The notes below the pieces were generated by a model that searched no databases, was not told the origin of the DNA, and was given only the letters and a program-made list of their open reading frames with translations. From Candidatus Saccharimonadota bacterium (lineage in GTDB: Bacteria; Patescibacteriota; Microgenomatia; UBA1406; GWC2-37-13), in NCBI GenBank assembly GCA_016699265.1, contig CP064967.1:450001-482000 (forward strand): 32,000 nucleotides of DNA, read 5' to 3'. The translations under genes and the position numbers were made by a program. Below, piece by piece: positions 9,536-31,955 of the stretch. Positions within the stretch are counted from its first letter, which is position 1; every line of letters begins with the position of its first letter.

Positions 9536-9570
9536 TTAGTTCTTAGTTCTTAGTTCTTAGTTCTTAGTTC
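9536..9570. repeat. Perfect tandem heptamer (TTAGTTC)x5
   Basis: Five exact copies read directly. It lies between the convergent LysM and polX genes, and the polX stop codon (9557-9559) is inside it. Confidence 0.95.
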
Positions 9571-10585
9571 TAATTATCGCTCGTTCTACCTCATCTCCTC
9601 CGGTACGTTCTTCAGGTTCGATATATCTGAGACCAAGAAAGTTATAAAGCTTCTCCTCGGTGTCGAAAGTCTTAATCGGTTCGTTTAGATTACGCATGTT
9701 TTTAAGACCATACTCGTTTAGGGAATATCCTTTTCCTAGCGCATACTCTCTTAACTTGATATTATGTGCCTTACTTCCTGTAAAGTACTGCAGGAGGGCG
9801 CCGTACGCAGTTCTTGGGTGTACTCTGAGGTCTATTCTCAGCTTGGGAGGAAGAATGATTGATGCTTTAGAGTCTCCAGCGTTATCTACGGAAATTTTTT
9901 TAGGGTAGGAAACGAAATGTTTCACAATTTCCATCGCATCTTTTTCCTGCGCAACAACTGCTATGTCAATATCTCCTATCGTTTGTGCTTTGCGCCGTAA
10001 GGATCCTAATATGTCCACCTGCTCAACTCCTTTGAAGCGCTGAAGATACTTCACTAGATCATCTGCGACTGTTTTGGCATAGTCATAAGGAATCCTATCT
10101 GGCGATTTATCCGCTGCTTCAAACTGCTTCAATGATTCGGTAAGTACCTTCTCTGACTGTGCACCGAAGCCTGGTAGTTCGGATATTTTATGCTTTTCAC
10201 AGAGATATTTTAGCTTTTTAATAACTGTATTAGTATCCATTAAATTAAACGCATTGACGAGCTTAAACGCCTTTATAGGGCCTACTTTAGGTACTCTGGT
10301 GAGGATAAATACCGTTTCGGGAACCTTACTCAACTGACGATCAATGAATTCTGAACTCCCTTTCTCAAAGAGCTCAATGATGTGACCCCTAATTGTCTCC
10401 CCGAGCCCCTCTACTGAGCTCAACTCTCCCCTCTTCCAGATCTCAAATAGCTCTTTGTCGAGGAGTTCGATCGCATCAGCTGCATTCTCATAGGCAGCTG
10501 TTCTAAACAACTCTTTTTTCTCAATTTTATAGACGACAACCACTTTCCTGAGCAGTTCCACTATTTCCTTGTTACTCTTTTGCAT
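9557..10585 (-). CDS. polX: DNA polymerase beta-like family X polymerase (no PHP domain)
   Basis: HhH motifs (GLGETIRGHI, GFGAQSEKV) and a nucleotidyltransferase core GSLRRKAQTIGDIDIAV. The start is set at MQKSNKEIV (ATG 10583-10585) because the longer track ORF runs into tRNA-Gly. Confidence 0.8.
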   Translation of the reverse strand: MQKSNKEIVELLRKVVVVYKIEKKELFRTAAYENAADAIELLDKELFEIWKRGELSSVEGLGETIRGHIIELFEKGSSEFIDRQLSKVPETVFILTRVPKVGPIKAFKLVNAFNLMDTNTVIKKLKYLCEKHKISELPGFGAQSEKVLTESLKQFEAADKSPDRIPYDYAKTVADDLVKYLQRFKGVEQVDILGSLRRKAQTIGDIDIAVVAQEKDAMEIVKHFVSYPKKISVDNAGDSKASIILPPKLRIDLRVHPRTAYGALLQYFTGSKAHNIKLREYALGKGYSLNEYGLKNMRNLNEPIKTFDTEEKLYNFLGLRYIEPEERTGGDEVERAIIRTKN

Positions 10586-10616
10586 ATTCGATAGAAGTAT
10601 ATACGAAAAAGTAGCC

Positions 10617-10625
10617 TGATATAAT
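10617..10625 (+). promoter_or_regulatory. Extended -10 element TGATATAAT upstream of tRNA-Gly
   Basis: TATAAT at 10620-10625 is preceded by TGA. The mature tRNA 5' end lies 11 nt downstream. Confidence 0.45.
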
Positions 10626-10635
10626 GAACCTTTAT

Positions 10636-10706
10636 GCGAGGTTAGTATAGTGGTAATACGCCTGCTTCCCAAGCAGGAGCCACGAGTCCGATTCTCGTAC
10701 CTCGCT
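10636..10706 (+). tRNA. tRNA-Gly (anticodon CCC)
   Basis: Manual cloverleaf. Acceptor GCGAGGT/ACCTCGC, D stem GTAT/ATAC, anticodon stem CCTGC/GCAGG with loop TTCCCAA, T stem ACGAG/CTCGT, discriminator T. No encoded CCA. Confidence 0.9.
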
Positions 10707-10765
10707 CATCGGTTCCCGCTTTGCCATCTGAAGCCTTGGCGAAAGATGGTATCCCGCTCAGTTTG

Positions 10766-11632
10766 TCAAAGTAAATCGGAGCGAGGTACCTTACCAATAC
10801 CTACTAAGTTTAGGTATGGCCTGAGATCCGGTCGAATTTTTTGCTCACTCTCGGGACGAGGAAGTCTTGTAGGCGCATTAATTGCTTTTTCAATTCGTAC
10901 CGGAAATCCAAAGAATCCTCTTACTCGAAATGGATTCGATGTGTTGGGTTTATTTGATAAAGGAGGAAGTTTTACATCAATACCCGATCCGATAAGTTGT
11001 TTAAAATATTCATGTGAGACTTCAGCAAGCCTATAAGGTACCTGAAATAACATGACTCCTCCCAAAGCGGTAATCTGCCACATATTCTGCAACATTAAAT
11101 AGTATAGAATTGGATCTGAAGGAATATAATCAGGATTCAGACCTCCTTCTGGACGAGATATCACAACATCAAATCCTGTAGAGGCTATTTCAACCTGCTT
11201 ACCTCTGATTTGAGTCCAACATTCCACAGATGCAATGTTTCCATTAATGGTATGAATCACTCCCGGACCAAGTTTTTGATCCCATTTGGGATCGTGAGGA
11301 AAACCTAAAGATACTGCAACTCCTTTGTCATATCCAAGTGAAGCTGCTTCACCAACTACAGACTCTGTTGCCATTAAGTCGATTATGCTTGTGTAGCCTT
11401 TTTTTTTCGCACGTTCATGTAAAAATACCCCTAACATTGCAGAGTTATTTACAGATTGAAATGTTCTACCATACTCAGAGATCGAACTGCCATGAATTCC
11501 CCAACCCGCTCTTCTCCCTTTAGAAGGGGCGGACCATTTTTCCCTCGTTGCTTGAATTCTCATATCAGGGAGCTCTGCTGGACTTAGATGACGTGTGAGA
11601 CTTCGATTTGAAAAATATCTTTCTCCGCTCAT
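10766..11632 (-). CDS. Uncharacterised protein, paralogue 1 of a tandem family (Rossmann/methyltransferase-fold-like)
   Basis: 288 aa. It shares WGIHGSSISEYGRTF, IIDLMATE, GVAVSLGF, FDVVISRPEGG and MLFQVP with the two ORFs upstream. Confidence 0.7.
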   Translation of the reverse strand: MSGERYFSNRSLTRHLSPAELPDMRIQATREKWSAPSKGRRAGWGIHGSSISEYGRTFQSVNNSAMLGVFLHERAKKKGYTSIIDLMATESVVGEAASLGYDKGVAVSLGFPHDPKWDQKLGPGVIHTINGNIASVECWTQIRGKQVEIASTGFDVVISRPEGGLNPDYIPSDPILYYLMLQNMWQITALGGVMLFQVPYRLAEVSHEYFKQLIGSGIDVKLPPLSNKPNTSNPFRVRGFFGFPVRIEKAINAPTRLPRPESEQKIRPDLRPYLNLVGIGKVPRSDLL

Positions 11633-11847
11633 AATTTTAGTTAAAAAGTGAAATATTAATTTTACTATTATTTAATTTCTTAAGATCATTTTTGAATCGC
11701 ACTGCTATATATAAACCAGACCGAAATCCAACGTTCACTTTTAGACGAAAAACCTCGAGCACATTTTTGTTATCTAGGAGAGTTGATTTCCCCAAAAATA
11801 GTTGTGTTTGTGGATTCCTATCTGACCGGTGTACTTTTAACATATGT

Positions 11848-12603
11848 TTATTTCATTCCCAACATGAGAGGAGATGGTAATACGGATGGGGATTCTTTTC
11901 TCTTACTAAGAACAACGGCATGGGTCATAAAACCATTTACAGACTCTGACCAATCGATGCTAAAACCTTTTTGTTTAAGCTTAGAAAAATACTTTTCAGC
12001 CTCAAAATATTGACATTGAGGAATTTGAAATAAGAATACTCCATCGTCATAACTGAGCAACCTCCAAGACTCTTAAAGCATGAAAAAGAGAGTTGAGGTT
12101 GTCAGTCTAGAATCCAGTATCCCTCCTTCGGGACGACAAATTATGATGTCAAAATATTCAAATCCTTTACTTTCCGCTACTTTTCGAATTTTTGACCATG
12201 TTTTCTTTATTGTTAAATCACCATTTAAATTACTACAAAACTCTCGATAAGGGCCACTATTTTTTCTAGGTCTGTATCCTAGAGATACTGCAAGACCAAA
12301 ATTGATGCCATAGTCACGCACAGATTGTAAAACAGCTGCGTCGCTTGCCATTAGGTCTAATATTGTGGTTTTATTAGGTCTCGAGGCAATTATAGATAAA
12401 AGATTGTCAAGGTTTTCTGGTGCTAAAATTGAATTGAATGTTGTCCCATAATCTTCTAGTGATGAATGACGTATTGTCCAATTATTAAAATCATCTATCC
12501 CATCTTCTCTCTCACGTTTTCCAATAAACTTATTATGCTTCCTCACGTGAGTCAAGATACGAGGATCAAGAAACTGCGGTTTGGTAGGTCTTTCGGCTTT
12601 CAT
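11848..12603 (-). pseudogene. Paralogue 2 of the tandem family, with a single in-frame TAA at 12073-12075
   Basis: ORFs 12073-12603 and 11848-12060 are in the same frame. The read-through sequence ...IICRPEGG...STLFFML*ESWRLLSYDDGVFLFQIP... aligns with the paralogues. Confidence 0.6.
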
Positions 12604-13385
12604 AATTTATGCAATGAAATACCTAACATTTTTGGGGTAGGGAGAAGTTTTGGTGCTTCTGGATTTCTTTGTAAATGTACAGACACTCCGTATATGTTCT
12701 GAAAACTCGATCCGATTGCAACCGTTATACCAGAAGTTGCGTTTAGTTTTTCTAAGTAGTCTACTCCTATGCCAAAAGTCATATGTGGTATCTGAAATAA
12801 CAATTGCCCGTTTTGAGGACTTAAAATCCTCCATGCTCGTTGAAGTAGCTCAAAATGCATTGCGACTGAATTAGTAAAGTGGTGCAAGCCTCGGAGGGGC
12901 CTTGACAGAATCACATCAAAAGTTGGCACTGCATTTGCACGCATATGTTCATCTATTGTTTGCCAAGTTGATTGTTCGACAATATCTCCGTTAACAATCT
13001 CTATAACCGAAGCTTCTGCAGGAGGAAGACTGCCCAACCCAAATCCCAGCGAGACCGCAAGCCCGTACTTAAACCCAAGATCGGTAGCCTCTCGTACAGC
13101 CGTTTCCGCCGCGGCAATATCAAGAATACTTGCATTTGGATTATTTTCTACCGAAGCCTTCAAATGAAGACTTAGTGAAGTCTTTAATACGTCGCTAAAT
13201 GTGTCGCTATAATCATTAAGACCGCTATCATGCGTGGCCCATGTACCTCGCCACAAACGACCTGGTTGAGACCATTTCTCCTTTATACCAATTTCCCTAT
13301 TTCTCTGACGATCATCGGCAAATGGTATACCTCTAGATAGCATCTCTCCCACTCGTTTACCTGCACCAAAATATGCTTCGATCAT
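12600..13385 (-). CDS. Paralogue 3 of the tandem family
   Basis: 261 aa with WATHDSGLNDYSDTF, ILDIAAAE, GLAVSLGF, FDVILSRPLRG, LLFQIP and a C-terminal LPTPKMLG. Its stop overlaps the start of paralogue 2 (ATGA). Confidence 0.7.
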   Translation of the reverse strand: MIEAYFGAGKRVGEMLSRGIPFADDRQRNREIGIKEKWSQPGRLWRGTWATHDSGLNDYSDTFSDVLKTSLSLHLKASVENNPNASILDIAAAETAVREATDLGFKYGLAVSLGFGLGSLPPAEASVIEIVNGDIVEQSTWQTIDEHMRANAVPTFDVILSRPLRGLHHFTNSVAMHFELLQRAWRILSPQNGQLLFQIPHMTFGIGVDYLEKLNATSGITVAIGSSFQNIYGVSVHLQRNPEAPKLLPTPKMLGISLHKL

Positions 13386-13549
13386 GCTCCATTATATCAA
13401 ATATGTCGCACTATAGGCTTGATTTAATTTTTGGACACCATATATTTCATTCATTTTTATCGAACGATATACCTTAGTTTTAAATCGAGTATAATATCTA
13501 CATTGTGCTTTCAGTAGGCAGTAATCAATAGTCAGATTTAAATTAATAA

Positions 13550-13584
13550 CTGACACCTGACATCTGAAAACTGATAACTAAGAG
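13550..13584. repeat. Heptad repeat CTGACAC CTGACAT CTGAAAA CTGATAA CTAAGAG
   Basis: Read directly, ending 4 nt before tRNA-Thr. Confidence 0.6.
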
Positions 13585-13588
13585 CAAT

Positions 13589-13659
13589 GCCCTTTTAGTT
13601 CAGTGGCAGAACAGCGGTATCGTAAACCGTTAACGTCAGTTCGATTCTGACAAAGGGCT
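13589..13659 (+). tRNA. tRNA-Thr (anticodon CGT)
   Basis: Manual cloverleaf. Acceptor GCCCTTT/AAAGGGC, D stem GTTC/GAAC, anticodon stem GCGGT/ACCGT with loop ATCGTAA, T stem GTCAG/CTGAC with loop TTCGATT. No encoded CCA. Confidence 0.9.
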
Positions 13660-13660
13660 C

Positions 13661-21995: not shown

Positions 21996-22910
21996 ATGAA
22001 AATTACACGATGTCCGATTTGCCAAAGTGTCACAACGAGAAACTATGCAAAGAGAGATAACTATTCATATCGTCACTGCATAAAATGTAATCATGTATTC
22101 CTTTTTCCGATACCCTCTTCATCATCGCTTCTAGATCTGTACTCGGGAGATTATGAGTTTCGAGTAAATGCTACCGCAAGAAATAGATTCGAAAAACAAG
22201 CCGATACCATCCTGAAGAATATGAGGCGGCTCAACCCTCAAGGTAAGACTCTCCTTGATGTGGGAGCAGGTTATGGCACCTTCGTGGAGATGGGACTCAG
22301 AAATCAACTGAAGGCGGTTGGGATAGAACCTGCGCGTAATCTATATCGGCAAGCAAAAACTAGGCTGGGAGATAAGATAATTCACACAGATCTAAATGAA
22401 TTTGTAAAAAGGAATAATAAACTCTTTGATTTCATTTCATTAATACATGTGGTTGAACATGTGGAAAATCCGGCCATTACTCTTTCCACTTTATATCAGT
22501 TACTCAAGCTAAATGGTGTCCTCTATGTCGAAACTCCTAATATCGATAGCTTCCTCTCCGATGCAGAAAAATCCAACTACACATTTCTCACTCCACCAGA
22601 TCATCTTAATTTGTTTTCTTCTAGATCTTTCAAAACATTACTTAATTCCTTAGACCTACCTTTGAAAGCAAGTTATTCCACCTACAGTTATCCTGAGCAT
22701 TTCGTAGGTATTTTGAGATCATCGAAATCAAAGCTGTTTCACAACCATGTTTCAACCATTGGAAGCACTCAGAAAACAAATACGAAGAATAACGATACGG
22801 TCTCCGATCTTCCATTTTTTGATAGGGTAGTGGCCCCAGCACTTACTCCCCTCTTGAACATTGGAAATAGGGGAAGCATACTTCAGATATATATTCAAAA
22901 AATGAATTGA
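21996..22910 (+). CDS. Class I SAM-dependent methyltransferase with an N-terminal zinc ribbon
   Basis: CPICQS...CIKCNH, then LLDVGAGYGTF and FDFISLIHVVEHV. Confidence 0.85.
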   Translation: MKITRCPICQSVTTRNYAKRDNYSYRHCIKCNHVFLFPIPSSSSLLDLYSGDYEFRVNATARNRFEKQADTILKNMRRLNPQGKTLLDVGAGYGTFVEMGLRNQLKAVGIEPARNLYRQAKTRLGDKIIHTDLNEFVKRNNKLFDFISLIHVVEHVENPAITLSTLYQLLKLNGVLYVETPNIDSFLSDAEKSNYTFLTPPDHLNLFSSRSFKTLLNSLDLPLKASYSTYSYPEHFVGILRSSKSKLFHNHVSTIGSTQKTNTKNNDTVSDLPFFDRVVAPALTPLLNIGNRGSILQIYIQKMN

Positions 22911-29078: not shown

Positions 29079-29540
29079 ATGATAGTTATGAGGAAAGCTT
29101 CACAAAAAGCAGGTTTTACTCTTGTAGAGTTATTGGTGGCAATAGGCATCTTTGGAGTATTAGTTGCGATTACGATAGTTGCTATAAATCCAGGAAGACA
29201 GTTCTCCCGTGCAAATAACACCAAAAGGCAAAGTGACGTTACTGCTCTTCTCGATGCGCTCGGACAATACTCTGCCGAAAATTCGGGAAGACTTCCCGCC
29301 ACAATAACTACAACGAACAAGACAGTAAGCAATACAGGAGCCGATATCTGCGGTCTGTTGGTACCAAATTACCTATCTGCCCTTCCTGTAGATCCAGGTA
29401 CAAATAACGGAACAGCTATTTCTAGTTGTGCCGGCGCTTACACCACAAACTATGAGGTCGCTCTTGATGCGAGTGGCCGCCTCATGGTAACTGCCCCCGC
29501 AACAGAGCTTGGAGGTGCGGTTATTACAGCAACTAGATAG
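29079..29540 (+). CDS. Type IV pilin / pseudopilin-like protein with a prepilin N-terminal cleavage-methylation motif
   Basis: KAGFTLVELLVAIGIFGVLVAI (G|FTLxE motif), followed by a Ser/Thr/Gly-rich globular part with two Cys. Confidence 0.85.
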   Translation: MIVMRKASQKAGFTLVELLVAIGIFGVLVAITIVAINPGRQFSRANNTKRQSDVTALLDALGQYSAENSGRLPATITTTNKTVSNTGADICGLLVPNYLSALPVDPGTNNGTAISSCAGAYTTNYEVALDASGRLMVTAPATELGGAVITATR

Positions 29541-29856: not shown

Positions 29857-31179
29857 ATGTTCAATACTCTAAATGAGAAAGACGAACCGAGAGTCCTAGC
29901 AACCTTAGACAATATTTCAAAGATTTATCCAAAGCTGTCCTTTATAAAAGAGCTGCATAAAATTAAGCAATACTCCGACGAACCAAAATATTTCCAATAT
30001 GTGGTTAGAATGGAAGACGATCTCAAAAACACAGATGGCCACACGTCAAATGAAAAAAAAGCTGGTGGAGGATCTTTTTTATCGGAGCAACTGGCACTAT
30101 TGAAATGCTTAGGGGAAGCAATTGAAAGATTCTCATGCTCAACTTATAAAAACACGGACCTTGTAACTTCGTCTGCAGAGAAATTAGAAGGTAGTATCGA
30201 CGTCACTAAAATCGTCGGCTTAACAGAAAGACAAAAAAAACAAAATAAAATGTTTAACGTCACTCCAAAGTCTGTTTTACGTTGGAAACAGGGTTACTCA
30301 CTTGGTACTGGCAAAAAAGCCTATATCCCCGCCCAACTTATCTACCATAATTATAAATTTGACTCTCAGGAAAATATGTTTTATTTACCAATCAGTACAG
30401 GAGCTGCTGGTGGAGGAAGCTTGACCGCGGCTTTAACGAGAGGAATATTTGAGATAGTAGAAAGAGATTCATTTGTTATTGCGTATTTAAATAAGATACG
30501 CTTCCCAAAAGTAAGTCTAGACTCAGTAAAAGATGAATACGTCCAATTCCTACTTGAGATGTTAAAACGATATAGGCTTGCAATTCATGTTATAGATATT
30601 ACTAACGACTTAAAGATACCCTGCTTTCTGTCAATAATAGTCAATAAGACAGGTATTGGTCCTGCTGTATCTACTGGTCTTAAGTGCCATCTTGACCCAA
30701 TCGAGGCGATAACAGGTTCTATAGAGGAAGCATTTAATGTTCGTACCTGGACTCGACAAAATTACGAGGACAATCCTAAGAAAGAAAAGAAAAACATGAG
30801 TGGAAATATAAGTAACACTGATCAGAGAGGGGTTTATTGGTACCAAAAAGAAATGATACATAAATTGGATTTTTGGCTAGACCAAAATGAAAAAACCTAT
30901 AACTTAAGCCATGTTAAGTTATCACAACAAAAAATTCTCAGCACCACTGTGCAATCCCTTTTTAAGAAAGGATATGAAATATACTACGCTGATGTAACGC
31001 TACCACTATTAAAGAGGGTCGGTTATAAAATTGTTAAGGTAGTAATTCCTGGATTACAACCTTTCTACATGAACGAGATTTTGCCATATTTAGGAGGCGA
31101 AAGATTAACAGAAGTACCTAAAAAACTACCTTATCAATTTTCACGCACTTTAAATAAGGTGCCACATCCTTTTCTATGA
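29857..31179 (+). CDS. YcaO-domain protein (cyclodehydratase-type)
   Basis: 440 aa. LKCLGEAIERFS, PISTGAAGGGS, GIFEIVERDSF, and a proline-containing C-terminus KVPHPFL. Confidence 0.85.
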   Translation: MFNTLNEKDEPRVLATLDNISKIYPKLSFIKELHKIKQYSDEPKYFQYVVRMEDDLKNTDGHTSNEKKAGGGSFLSEQLALLKCLGEAIERFSCSTYKNTDLVTSSAEKLEGSIDVTKIVGLTERQKKQNKMFNVTPKSVLRWKQGYSLGTGKKAYIPAQLIYHNYKFDSQENMFYLPISTGAAGGGSLTAALTRGIFEIVERDSFVIAYLNKIRFPKVSLDSVKDEYVQFLLEMLKRYRLAIHVIDITNDLKIPCFLSIIVNKTGIGPAVSTGLKCHLDPIEAITGSIEEAFNVRTWTRQNYEDNPKKEKKNMSGNISNTDQRGVYWYQKEMIHKLDFWLDQNEKTYNLSHVKLSQQKILSTTVQSLFKKGYEIYYADVTLPLLKRVGYKIVKVVIPGLQPFYMNEILPYLGGERLTEVPKKLPYQFSRTLNKVPHPFL

Positions 31180-31955
31180 AAATCAATAACGAATTAAAAA
31201 AGAAATTTAATTTACTGCCATATTCTGAATCGCAACAGTACCATCATGCAACAAAACTTACAAAATTTATAGAAAAAAAAGGTTCTATAAATAATGGTCC
31301 CAAAGAGTGGTTTCATATTTTCTATAAAGGCTATCCAAAATTCGAAAAAATCGTATTACCGAAAAAAATCAATTTGGATAACGTAAAACTCCTACATGCT
31401 TTAAGCAAAAGAAAGACACTGAGAGAATACTCAGGAAAAGAGTTAAATTTTTCAAAACTAGGTACATTGCTTTACTATTCAGCAGGATTAAGAAATAAAA
31501 ATCGTAAGGCTGGGAATAGATTCTACCCTTCTGCTGGAGCAAGGTATCCTCTTGAGACATACATAGTAAGTTTTAATACTAAAGGGCTTAAACAGGGAAT
31601 TTATCACTACCACCTAAGAAGTGGCAAATTAGAGTTTCTTTGGACAAAGAAACATTTTAAGGAAGTGCTTATGAAAAACTTCAACCAAGATTGGATATCG
31701 AACGCAGGAGCATTGATCGTTATTTCAGCAGTTTTTTGGAGGAATGAAATGAAGTATCGAGACAGAGGCTATAGACATACTTTAACAGAATTAGGAGCTT
31801 TAACACAAAACATATATCTTCTTTCAGCGGTTCTAAAATTAGGCTGCGCTTCAATTGGAGGTTTCATTGACGATAAATTAAACTCATTATTGGATTTAGA
31901 TGGTGAAGATGAGTCCGTATTAGGAGTCATAGCGGTCGGTGAGATTGACAAATAG
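31176..31955 (+). CDS. SagB-type dehydrogenase (nitroreductase superfamily)
   Basis: 259 aa. TLREYSGKELNFSKLGTLLYYSAG...NRFYPSAGARYPLETYIV...YRHTLTELGALTQN. It overlaps the YcaO stop by 4 nt. Confidence 0.85.
   Translation: MKINNELKKKFNLLPYSESQQYHHATKLTKFIEKKGSINNGPKEWFHIFYKGYPKFEKIVLPKKINLDNVKLLHALSKRKTLREYSGKELNFSKLGTLLYYSAGLRNKNRKAGNRFYPSAGARYPLETYIVSFNTKGLKQGIYHYHLRSGKLEFLWTKKHFKEVLMKNFNQDWISNAGALIVISAVFWRNEMKYRDRGYRHTLTELGALTQNIYLLSAVLKLGCASIGGFIDDKLNSLLDLDGEDESVLGVIAVGEIDK

Follow-up and report, generated by a model that had tools for sequence, protein, structure and literature searches.

The genomes of bacteria of the Candidate Phyla Radiation (CPR; Patescibacteria) are tiny, and much of their gene content is functionally uncharacterised. 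Among well-studied enzymes, class I S-adenosylmethionine (SAM)-dependent methyltransferases (MTases; Pfam clan CL0063 with the families Methyltransf_11, Methyltransf_23 and Methyltransf_25) possess a glycine-rich GxGxG loop and an acidic residue after strand β2. The latter is the most conserved SAM contact in these enzymes and contacts the ribose hydroxyls. Enzymes of the FtsJ/RlmE/RrmJ group (PF01728; structures 3dou and 1eiz) are marked by the tetrad K38, D124, K164 and E199. The MADS defence system contains a predicted N6-methyltransferase, mad2 (PADLOC PDLC04134; bioRxiv 10.1101/2023.03.30.534895). Contingency loci built on simple sequence repeats are represented by the phase-variable genes of Neisseria, Campylobacter and Bordetella (PMC1891110, PMC2831843). 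Here, we describe a tandem array of three paralogous genes, c1, c2 and c3, located in a 32,000-nucleotide stretch (hereafter, the window) of the genome of a Candidatus Saccharimonadota bacterium (GenBank assembly GCA_016699265.1, contig CP064967.1, positions 450,001 to 482,000). The encoded proteins belong to a new, sizeable family, whose members are predicted to adopt the very well-known class I MTase fold and which combines an unusual signature at the presumed cofactor site with unusual population dynamics.

The c1–c3 family and its predicted fold

All three genes lie between genes for tRNA-Gly and tRNA-Thr, as was stated in a preliminary description of this DNA and is borne out by ARAGORN, Rfam and a hidden Markov model (HMM) of the family; they are on the minus strand. 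That description had listed three open reading frames (ORFs). Those of c1 and c3 are intact, whereas c2 is not a single ORF but is interrupted by TAA at codon 177; the family HMM matches both of its halves (E = 9e-35 and 1e-14). The sequence motifs reported to be shared by the three proteins were all present, with R for H in the W-x2-H motif of c2 and MLFQVP in c1 as deviations, and LP(T/S)PxMLG was confined, as described, to two of the three proteins, c3 and c2. Pairwise identity among c1, c2 and c3 is 27–31%. The BLASTP E values (2e-33 for c3/c2, 5e-30 for c3/c1 and 5e-25 for c2/c1) are far beyond chance, so the paralogy is real. Also, c1 is extended at its C terminus and carries an insertion of 10–12 residues following the β5-αE region. 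The stop codon of c3 lies on the start codon of c2 in an ATGA overlap, which suggests translational coupling of these two genes.

An AlphaFold2 model of c3, built on a 10-sequence alignment, had a predicted local distance difference test (pLDDT) score of 81 and a predicted template modelling score of 0.83. The strands of the model (residues 86-89, 107-112, 127-132, 158-160, 193-199, 220-224 and 234-240), with helices between them, follow the order β1-αA-β2-β3-αC-β4-αD-β5-αE-β6-β7, as in class I MTases. Judged by the order of these predicted elements along the sequence, the protein has a seven-strand, Rossmann-like β-α-β core with a β6-β7 hairpin. A Foldseek search of the PDB with this model gave 89 matches at E ≤ 1e-3, and all of the best 50 have the class I SAM-methyltransferase fold, almost all of them being methyltransferases. 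The top match was the FtsJ-like structure 3dou (E = 1e-8; template modelling score on the target, 0.60); further matches included COMT, KsgA, TlyA, spermidine synthase and others. Among 159 matches in BFVD, the named ones in the best 50 were nearly all methyltransferases, including FtsJ-like ones, or viral polymerase/L proteins; the L proteins of mononegaviruses contain an MTase domain.

A second AlphaFold2 model, that of the distant member P0035 (pLDDT 75), returned 571 PDB matches at E ≤ 1e-3. The best 50 were again all enzymes of the class I SAM-methyltransferase fold, led by DnrK, DOT1L, spermidine synthase, COMT, BCDIN3D and Hen1, without a preference for FtsJ. On the basis of these models, the assignment to class I SAM methyltransferases is solid at the level of the fold, while a specific assignment to FtsJ is not. 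The preliminary description had pointed to a motif order resembling that of SAM methyltransferases. This agrees with the two models, which match class I MTases only, and with an hhalign comparison of the family to a canonical Methyltransf_23 protein encoded in the window, in which the motifs were in register (E = 0.007). The corresponding value for Escherichia coli RlmE, whose sequence is identical to 1eiz, was E = 0.025. A HMMER search of the PDB with a profile of 128 members found 3dou as the sole match (E = 0.04).

An exhaustive profile search of representatives of 50%-identity clusters detected 916 of them at E ≤ 1e-3 and 419 at E ≤ 1e-10. The family size is taken from this search; a word-indexed search with c3 reached only 8 clusters, the 128-member profile reached 7 among the 8000 most word-similar candidates, and a query with the Curtissbacteria member reached its own cluster only. 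All column statistics given below refer to 128 members. The family proteins are single-domain proteins of about 250 amino acids (aa); among the members listed, lengths are mostly 215–300 aa, with a few of up to 378 aa. They have no N-terminal hydrophobic segment and are, by the look of the sequence, probably cytoplasmic. All names given by the sources read 'hypothetical protein', and these sources are Ca. Roizmanbacteria, Woesebacteria, Curtissbacteria and the Microgenomates group; KKR61327.1, a distant member, belongs to Ca. Curtissbacteria. An origin from Microgenomates/CPR is stated here for the named members, which are a minority of the 916 representatives.

The three proteins of the window had no match in Pfam at E ≤ 10. 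Five of the 128 members gave sub-threshold matches to MTase models (FtsJ in three cases, Methyltransf_31 and Methyltransf_23 in one case each), the best FtsJ match (E = 0.0015) scoring 18.9 bits, below the cut-off of 24.1. Nothing meaningful was found for the family in PHROGs or in NCBIfam, where TIGR00438 reached 12 bits against a cut-off of 300. Weak PADLOC matches to mad2 occurred in 8 of the 128 members (best E = 1e-6) and in none of the window proteins. The view that the family could not be assigned to anything characterised was therefore upheld, as no Pfam, NCBIfam, PADLOC or PHROG model matched it at the curated threshold. Our literature search found no paper describing it. The canonical Methyltransf_23 protein (window positions 21996-22910) was readily detected by Pfam (E = 4e-24), so the failure of profiles is specific to the c1–c3 family and is not due to general CPR divergence.

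Other members of the family are encoded by single genes, or by paired but dispersed ones, in unrelated contexts, some of them beside toxin-antitoxin genes. A conserved neighbour of single-copy members was considered and dropped, the 453-aa and 466-aa downstream proteins in L010 and L017 being unrelated (L-numbers are labels of the related loci and contigs compared).

Residues of the predicted cofactor cleft

When the family columns are read on the strands of the c3 model, the invariant residues are located at the C-terminal ends of β1–β5. These include D89 (124/128), M91 (111/128) and a small residue at position 92 after β1; S/A/T112 and L113 after β2; G133 (117/128) and D/N134 (125/128) after β3; S/C/E161, R162 (115/128) and P/A/G163, followed by a variable residue, G and G166, after β4; and Q198 and P200, separated by one residue, after β5. 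The other invariants are W49, Y59 and F63 in the N-terminal helix, W141, W185, and the C-terminal sequence K/R-x-P-x-S/A-P-x-x-L-P. The strand ends are the site of the canonical cofactor/substrate cleft.

The scaffold motifs of the fold are kept: β1 ends in VLD, β4 contains FDxIxS, and αD and β5 contain LLSPxxGxLLxQxP. Both F156-D157 and L188-S-P-x-x-G193-x-L-L are present and in register with the canonical Methyltransf_23 protein, the shared patterns being VLD, FDxI and LLxxxGxLxxxxP. D/N134 provides the acid or amide that follows β3 in the position contacting adenine N6.

In place of the GxGxG loop, the family has M-(A/G/S)-x-(G/T/S), and the β1 loops of the window proteins read DIAAAET, DLMASDA and DLMATES. 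In the alignment to the Methyltransf_23 protein of the window, DLM-a-x-g falls on DVG-A-G-Y-G, so that all three Gly positions hold other residues. Similarly, LAVSL-g-D-x-R falls on KAVGI-E-P-A-R, and D115 of the family is thus one residue past the canonical ribose-binding acid. The glycine-rich SAM loop had been reported as missing from the three proteins, and we come to the same conclusion: the three positions are non-Gly in their subfamily, and the first one is Met in most of the family.

Two types of cleft can be distinguished. In the majority type, DLM[G/S/A]xG occurs together with [S/T]LxDxR. An acid at position 114 or 115 is present in 90 of the 128 members, that is, in the rest of the family outside the window subfamily; it is usually part of D-x-R and lies one residue past the canonical site. 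The window type has DLMA[S/T/D][E/D] with SLG[F/Y/M], and both the loop glycines and D-x-R are lacking, while a new acid appears in the β1 loop. This acid may compensate for the lost D115.

The variable slot between the tRNA genes

The features of the locus are listed in Table 1. On one side, the array is flanked by genes for PolX, LysM, LemA and M48 proteins, and on the other side by those for a Big-domain protein, Wzy and glycosyltransferases. A family X DNA polymerase adjoins the slot in all relatives examined. The longest ORF of PolX in the window (9557-10672, minus strand) begins at a TTG and overlaps tRNA-Gly; this overlap is an artefact of ORF listing, since gene callers and the relatives use an internal Met start (342 aa).

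Table 1. Features of the c1–c3 locus in window coordinates
Feature	Position	Strand	Evidence or remark
tRNA-Gly(CCC)	10636..10707	+	ARAGORN; Rfam RF00005, 64.3 bits; one border of the variable slot
c1, D-type paralogue, 288 aa, intact in the window genome	10766..11632	-	ORF; family HMM, E = 4e-65
A9 homopolymer in c1	11399..11407	-	T9 on the + strand; codons K75-K77 and the first base of G78
c2-c1 spacer, 215 bp	11633..11847		Probably non-coding
68-aa ORF in the c2-c1 spacer	11637-11843	-	Called as a gene by several pipelines; probably not a gene
c2, B-type paralogue, 251 codons, pseudogene in the window genome	11848..12603	-	Family HMM matches both halves
In-frame TAA (CAA to TAA), codon 177 of c2	12073..12075	-	Cuts c2 after β4 and αD
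c3, A-type paralogue, 261 aa	12600..13385	-	ORF; family HMM, E = 1e-65
tRNA-Thr(CGT)	13589..13660	+	ARAGORN; Rfam, 64.2 bits; other border of the variable slot

Arrays at the same place were found in six further genomes. They share the flanks Wzy, Big-domain protein and tRNA-Thr on one side, and tRNA-Gly, PolX, LysM, LemA, M48 and AsnB on the other; tRNA-Gly(CCC) borders the array in L001, L002, L007, L008, L009, L012 and L019. A neighbour-joining tree and the identity matrix resolved the orthogroups A, A', B, C and D, which always occur in that order. There are four copies in L007 (A, B, C, D) and L009 (A, A', C, D), five in L008 (A, A', B, C, D) and in L014, and three in L012 (A and two C/D-type copies). 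The window has A, B (the pseudogene) and D, and three copies are also carried by L001–L006 and L019, which belong to the same species. Taken together, copy number ranges from 0 to 5 across relatives, with 3–5 collinear paralogues within the window clade.

Orthologues from the window and the other genomes are 37–53% identical (48–53% for c1 and L007_4, L008_5 and L009_4; 41% for c2 and L007_2 and L008_3). Paralogue identity is about 25–33% across the A/A'/B and C/D groups and up to about 39% within them. Orthologues are thus closer than paralogues, and the duplications predate these lineages. The same orthogroup order at this level of orthologue identity indicates old vertical inheritance. Superimposed on it is recent cassette exchange by recombination, as seen in two comparisons. 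Namely, the flanks of L007 and L009 are about 99% identical, yet gene 2 is B in the former (L007:8747-9488) and A' in the latter (L009:7912-8678), and the B cassettes of L007 and L008 have a synonymous divergence (dS) of 0.04 against 0.5–0.8 in neighbouring genes. The 3' half of gene 1 is mosaic in L007/L009. Between L007 and L008, the ratio of non-synonymous to synonymous divergence (dN/dS) is 0.09–0.23 for all orthogroups, compared with 0.05 for PolX. Tandem expansion is not unique to the window clade, as in another lineage (L107:3-2098) at least three tandem family members are followed by a GIY-YIG gene. The GenBank records of L008 and L009 (CAZHVF010000010.1 and CAYOIN010000011.1) are labelled 'uncultured Gammaproteobacteria bacterium'; their PolX proteins are 71–72% identical to that of the window and the gene order is common to them, while other records with sequences identical to c1, c2, c3, PolX, LemA and M48 of the window carry the names Ca. 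Roizmanbacteria, Ca. Woesebacteria or Microgenomates group bacterium, so this label looks wrong.

A metagenome scan for relatives of PolX yielded 80 loci with 37–100% PolX identity. In 22 of these, ARAGORN located both tRNA-Thr(CGT) and tRNA-Gly(CCC) on the upstream side of PolX, and the Big and Wzy flanks are conserved around the slot. Over the 80 loci, the family HMM matched only at the same-species locus. It had been proposed earlier to compare synteny for relatives in which the two tRNA genes are adjacent without the triplet, and seven such contigs with the same flanks were found (L020, L022, L025, L028, L037, L047 and L087), the gap being 29–140 bp. The gap is 0.6–0.9 kb in L024, L044, L046, L066 and L076, and 2.3–5.2 kb in L027, L038, L055, L064, L072 and L079. 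Unrelated genes occupy the larger gaps; they encode, among others, large predicted secreted proteins and a canonical MTase accompanied by zinc-ribbon proteins. The slot has the appearance of a general hotspot of lineage-specific genes in Microgenomates.

The nearest empty site is that of L020 (560-740), with the order Big, tRNA-Thr, 38 bp, tRNA-Gly and PolX; its PolX and Big proteins are 70% and 76% identical, respectively, to those of the window. Judging by Big, the window and L014 are nearer to L020 than to the L007 group; judging by PolX, the L020, window/L014 and L007 groups are about equidistant. The empty site may be an outgroup state or have arisen by secondary loss; in both cases, the content of the slot varies and, at this taxonomic depth, the array can be dispensed with.

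Variation within the species was analysed in a near-identical set consisting of the window and 14 contigs from metagenomes or metagenome-assembled genomes; arrays of L001–L005 are 98.6–98.9% identical to that of the window, and L006 is similar. What the TAA leaves of c2 is an ORF of 176 aa (12073-12603) and a remnant of 70 aa that starts with TTG (11848-12060). The 14 other contigs all have C instead of the T found in the window at position 12075, so that their codon is CAA (Gln) and their c2 is intact with 251 aa. The 176-aa product in GenBank (QQR64388.1; IPH70_02705) is recorded for one genome of 928,688 bp only. By its sequence, c2 is probably a strain-specific pseudogene or possibly reflects an error in that single assembly. 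Read-through of the TAA under an alternative code was considered and dropped, because other strains have CAA and because TAA (11848-11850) is the stop codon of c2 itself.

The homopolymer in c1, a frameshift-prone tract and one of only two runs of nine or more in the window, is A9 in the window and L001–L006 and A8 in eight independent assemblies (L099–L106) originating from ENA, Logan, NCBI and JGI. The A8 allele shifts the frame and results in c1 products of 82 and 202 aa. In the listed cluster members, 27 contigs carry the 82-aa product and about 49 the intact 288-aa protein. The A8 allele is present on both major haplotypes, which is compatible with recurrent slippage as well as with recombination. 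The A8/A9 difference may represent phase variation in a CPR bacterium or a recombining strain polymorphism. One further contig, L006, has a 31-bp insertion in c1 (L006:10324-10364, near window position 11056) that splits it into ORFs of 187 and 97 aa. The population thus contains three independent lesions, with the TAA of c2 restricted to the window, the 31-bp insertion restricted to L006, and the A9-to-A8 change in c1.

Variable columns make up about 2.7% of the array among the 15 near-identical sequences, as compared with about 0.7% of PolX. Within the species, dN/dS is 0.05 for c3, 0.27–0.30 for c2 and about 0.46 for c1, the last value being derived from few sites. The most constrained copy, c3, is intact in every near-identical contig compared. 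Purifying selection acts on all copies, and individual copies are dispensable.

Polymorphism in the locus peaks in the spacer, where 13 columns vary within about 160 bp among the 15 contigs. A decayed fourth paralogue in the 215-bp spacer was considered and dropped, as the family HMM gave no signal there (best E = 3.8). The spacer contains an 18-nt imperfect inverted repeat (11635-11652 / 11734-11751). A scan for sigma-70 promoters and terminators gave numbers of sites not above those in shuffled sequence.

Elsewhere in the window (29857-31955, plus strand), a gene for a YcaO cyclodehydratase (440 aa) lies beside a nitroreductase-family gene (259 aa, possibly SagB-like), with a 153-aa ORF upstream at 29079-29540. 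The pair suggests a cluster for an azoline- or thioamide-containing ribosomally synthesised and post-translationally modified peptide in a CPR genome.

Possible functions and comparison with known systems

Judging from the models, the c1–c3 proteins are most likely accessory enzymes or ligand-binding proteins with a non-canonical methyltransferase cleft. More specifically, we tentatively favour accessory, non-housekeeping transferases whose cleft still binds an adenosyl-type cofactor, most likely SAM, by means of a non-canonical loop. The paralogues would differ in their variable surfaces, namely the β2-β3 loop, αC and the β5-to-β6 region, and would for this reason act on different macromolecular targets, which may be RNA, DNA or protein. 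The repertoire would be tuned through gene loss, gene exchange and frameshift.

Several observations weigh against this proposal. The three Gly positions of motif I are occupied, over the 128 members, by Met (111/128) and two variable residues, and the acid after β2 is lost in the window subfamily. A family-wide catalytic residue of a known MTase type, K-D-K-E or (D/N/S)PP(Y/F), is absent from these members. The links to MTase families by sequence are weak, with E = 0.04 for 3dou, hhalign probabilities of 2–5%, and sub-threshold FtsJ matches in 3 of 128 members. Also, the isoelectric points are mixed, with a median of 6.9, whereas uniformly basic values might be expected for RNA-binding enzymes such as RlmE (9.4), and no conserved gene neighbour, fusion or isoelectric-point bias hinting at a substrate was found.

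It is possible, though doubtful, that the proteins are pseudoenzymes, which use the MTase fold as a scaffold and, at any rate in the window subfamily, have lost both cofactor binding and catalysis. They would then serve in binding or as adaptors and contact partners such as RNA, a small molecule or a protein through the cleft and the C-terminal K-x-P-x-S/A-P-x-x-L-P tail. The absence of the Gly loop across the whole family is consistent with such a role, and so is the window subfamily, where the loss of the loop glycines goes together with that of D-x-R after β2. The replacement of the FtsJ catalytic Asp by Arg and of K164 by a hydrophobic residue, as well as the dispensability of single copies, point in the same direction. 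However, the most conserved positions are exactly those of the canonical cleft, with D/N134 conserved in 98% of members, and c3 is under strong constraint (dN/dS of 0.05). Some active MTases also tolerate a residue other than Gly at the first loop position; GNMT, for instance, has Ala there, and the NOL1/NOP2/Sun family has Cys.

A bolder proposal, which we regard as rather unlikely, joins the cleft and the population data: the MTase fold would have been repurposed, a possibility raised in the preliminary description, with a new invariant set (M91, R162-P-x-G-G, W141, W185 and the Pro-rich tail) for an activity or ligand novel for this fold, and the array would be a contingency locus in one lineage. 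If so, the repertoire of this collinear cassette array would change through frameshifts at the homopolymer, nonsense mutations, and the loss of cassettes or their exchange between strains. To our knowledge and according to our literature search, it would be the first switchable gene array described in an ultra-small CPR symbiont, serving presumably in the interaction with a host or with phages.

Different chemistry on the same fold, without methyl transfer, is less likely again. Here, Arg162 would hold a nucleotide-like or a carboxylate- or phosphate-bearing ligand, and the reaction might be, for example, an aminopropyl or carboxy-SAM-type transfer or a nucleotide-dependent one. The invariant R162-P-x-G-G, M91, W141 and W185 around the cleft lie outside the known MTase signatures, and spermidine synthases, which are non-methyl transferases of this fold, were among the structural matches. 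These synthases matched no better than MTases, though; no specific similarity to an enzyme of this kind was detected, and the argument is purely inferential.

We consider it very improbable that the genes code for ordinary housekeeping 2'-O-methyltransferases of rRNA or tRNA (divergent relatives of RlmE, TlyA or Trm7), which look odd only through CPR divergence. Such an origin would account for 3dou being the top match of c3 both by fold and by profile, for the weak Pfam FtsJ matches in three members, and for the FtsJ-like methyltransferases and viral L proteins with such a domain among the top BFVD matches. It is at odds with the absence of the conserved K-D-K-E tetrad, with the P0035 model, which shows no FtsJ preference, and with the absence of the array from the slot in L020 (about 70% PolX identity), the range of 0–5 copies and the knock-outs in the population. 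Divergence alone is insufficient as an explanation, given that the canonical MTase of the window was easily found by Pfam.

The position between two tRNA genes had been taken as typical of accessory or island DNA. The first part of this claim stands, since the slot is empty or filled with unrelated genes in relatives; the second does not, as the hallmarks of mobile islands are lacking. The gap holds only the three paralogues and the spacer, with no integrase or recombinase in it or in the flanks; no tRNA-derived direct repeats were found, the only repeats being the paralogue motifs themselves; and a GC shift is absent (0.36–0.41 in the array versus about 0.40 in the window). No relatives on mobile elements were present in 50,697 phage records, 72,556 plasmids and IMG/VR, and a phage or plasmid origin of the array was dropped for this reason. 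These results indicate that the array is not a recent mobile island. That the genes are cargo of such a recently integrated island, or of a prophage remnant aimed at tRNA genes, is therefore extremely unlikely, and the orthogroup order kept at 37–53% orthologue identity also speaks against it. In favour of an island are only the presence/absence variation at a conserved site between two tRNA genes and the 29–140-bp gap in seven related contigs including L020.

The family comprises at least 916 clusters, with up to five adjacent genes in one lineage, yet is included in no domain database. A class I MTase fold with defined non-canonical motifs makes it a concrete biochemical target, and the profile is ready for use in annotation. 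The population data, that is, the empty slot, the 0–5 copies, the cassette exchange, the three knock-outs and the A8/A9 alleles, are unusual for a cytoplasmic enzyme-like protein. If the proteins modify RNA, DNA or protein in a strain-variable manner, this may bear on the dealings of CPR bacteria with hosts or phages. These data overturn nothing known; they hint at switchable gene repertoires in ultra-small bacteria.

In comparison with class I SAM MTases, the family is alike in its predicted fold, element order, scaffold motifs and D/N after β3. It differs in having M-(A/G/S)-x-(G/T/S) instead of GxGxG, and in the acid after β2, which most of the family has at a position shifted by +1 and which the window subfamily lacks. 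It also has an invariant set of its own, consisting of W49, Y59, F63, M91, W141, R162, W185, Q198, P200 and the C-terminal tail.

The FtsJ/RlmE/RrmJ group provides the best single structural and profile match for c3, one that is statistically marginal. Some motifs are alike, namely DLMASE of the family and DLGAAPGG of RlmE, NGDI...TW..I and QGDF...V...L, and, in motif IV, FDVILSRPEGG and VQVVMSDMAPNMSG. Of the tetrad, D124 corresponds to the invariant R162 and K164 to position 197 (T/L/F/I/V), as far as the weak alignment allows; K38 and E199 have no conserved Lys or Glu counterpart. None of the window proteins or of the 128 family members scored above the cut-off of the curated FtsJ/RlmE models of Pfam (PF01728) and NCBIfam. 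Specific membership in FtsJ was dropped, as P0035 has no preference for it and the tetrad is not conserved.

The sequence FDxIxS-R-P-x-G of the family resembles FDxIxx-(N/D/S)-P-P-(Y/F) of amino-MTases. Motif IV of N6-adenine and N4-cytosine MTases is (D/N/S)-P-P-(Y/F/W), whereas the family has S/C/E-R-P/A/G-x. The member scoring best against mad2, P0128, matches the segment of the model from motif IV to β5. No restriction or defence partner genes were found in the array. A link to MADS was dropped, because the weak matches are limited to 8 of 128 members, none of them from the window, and partner genes are missing.

With regard to contingency loci, our search found no paper tying phase variation to Patescibacteria. 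The A9 of c1 is a short tract, and recombination could also account for the presence of the off allele, A8, on two haplotype backgrounds. The c1 orthologues in the other genomes have no tract at this place; a few runs of 7–8 nt exist elsewhere in their arrays. The likeness to contingency loci lies in c1 itself, where an in-frame A9 varies by one base among near-identical strains and the shorter allele puts the gene out of frame.

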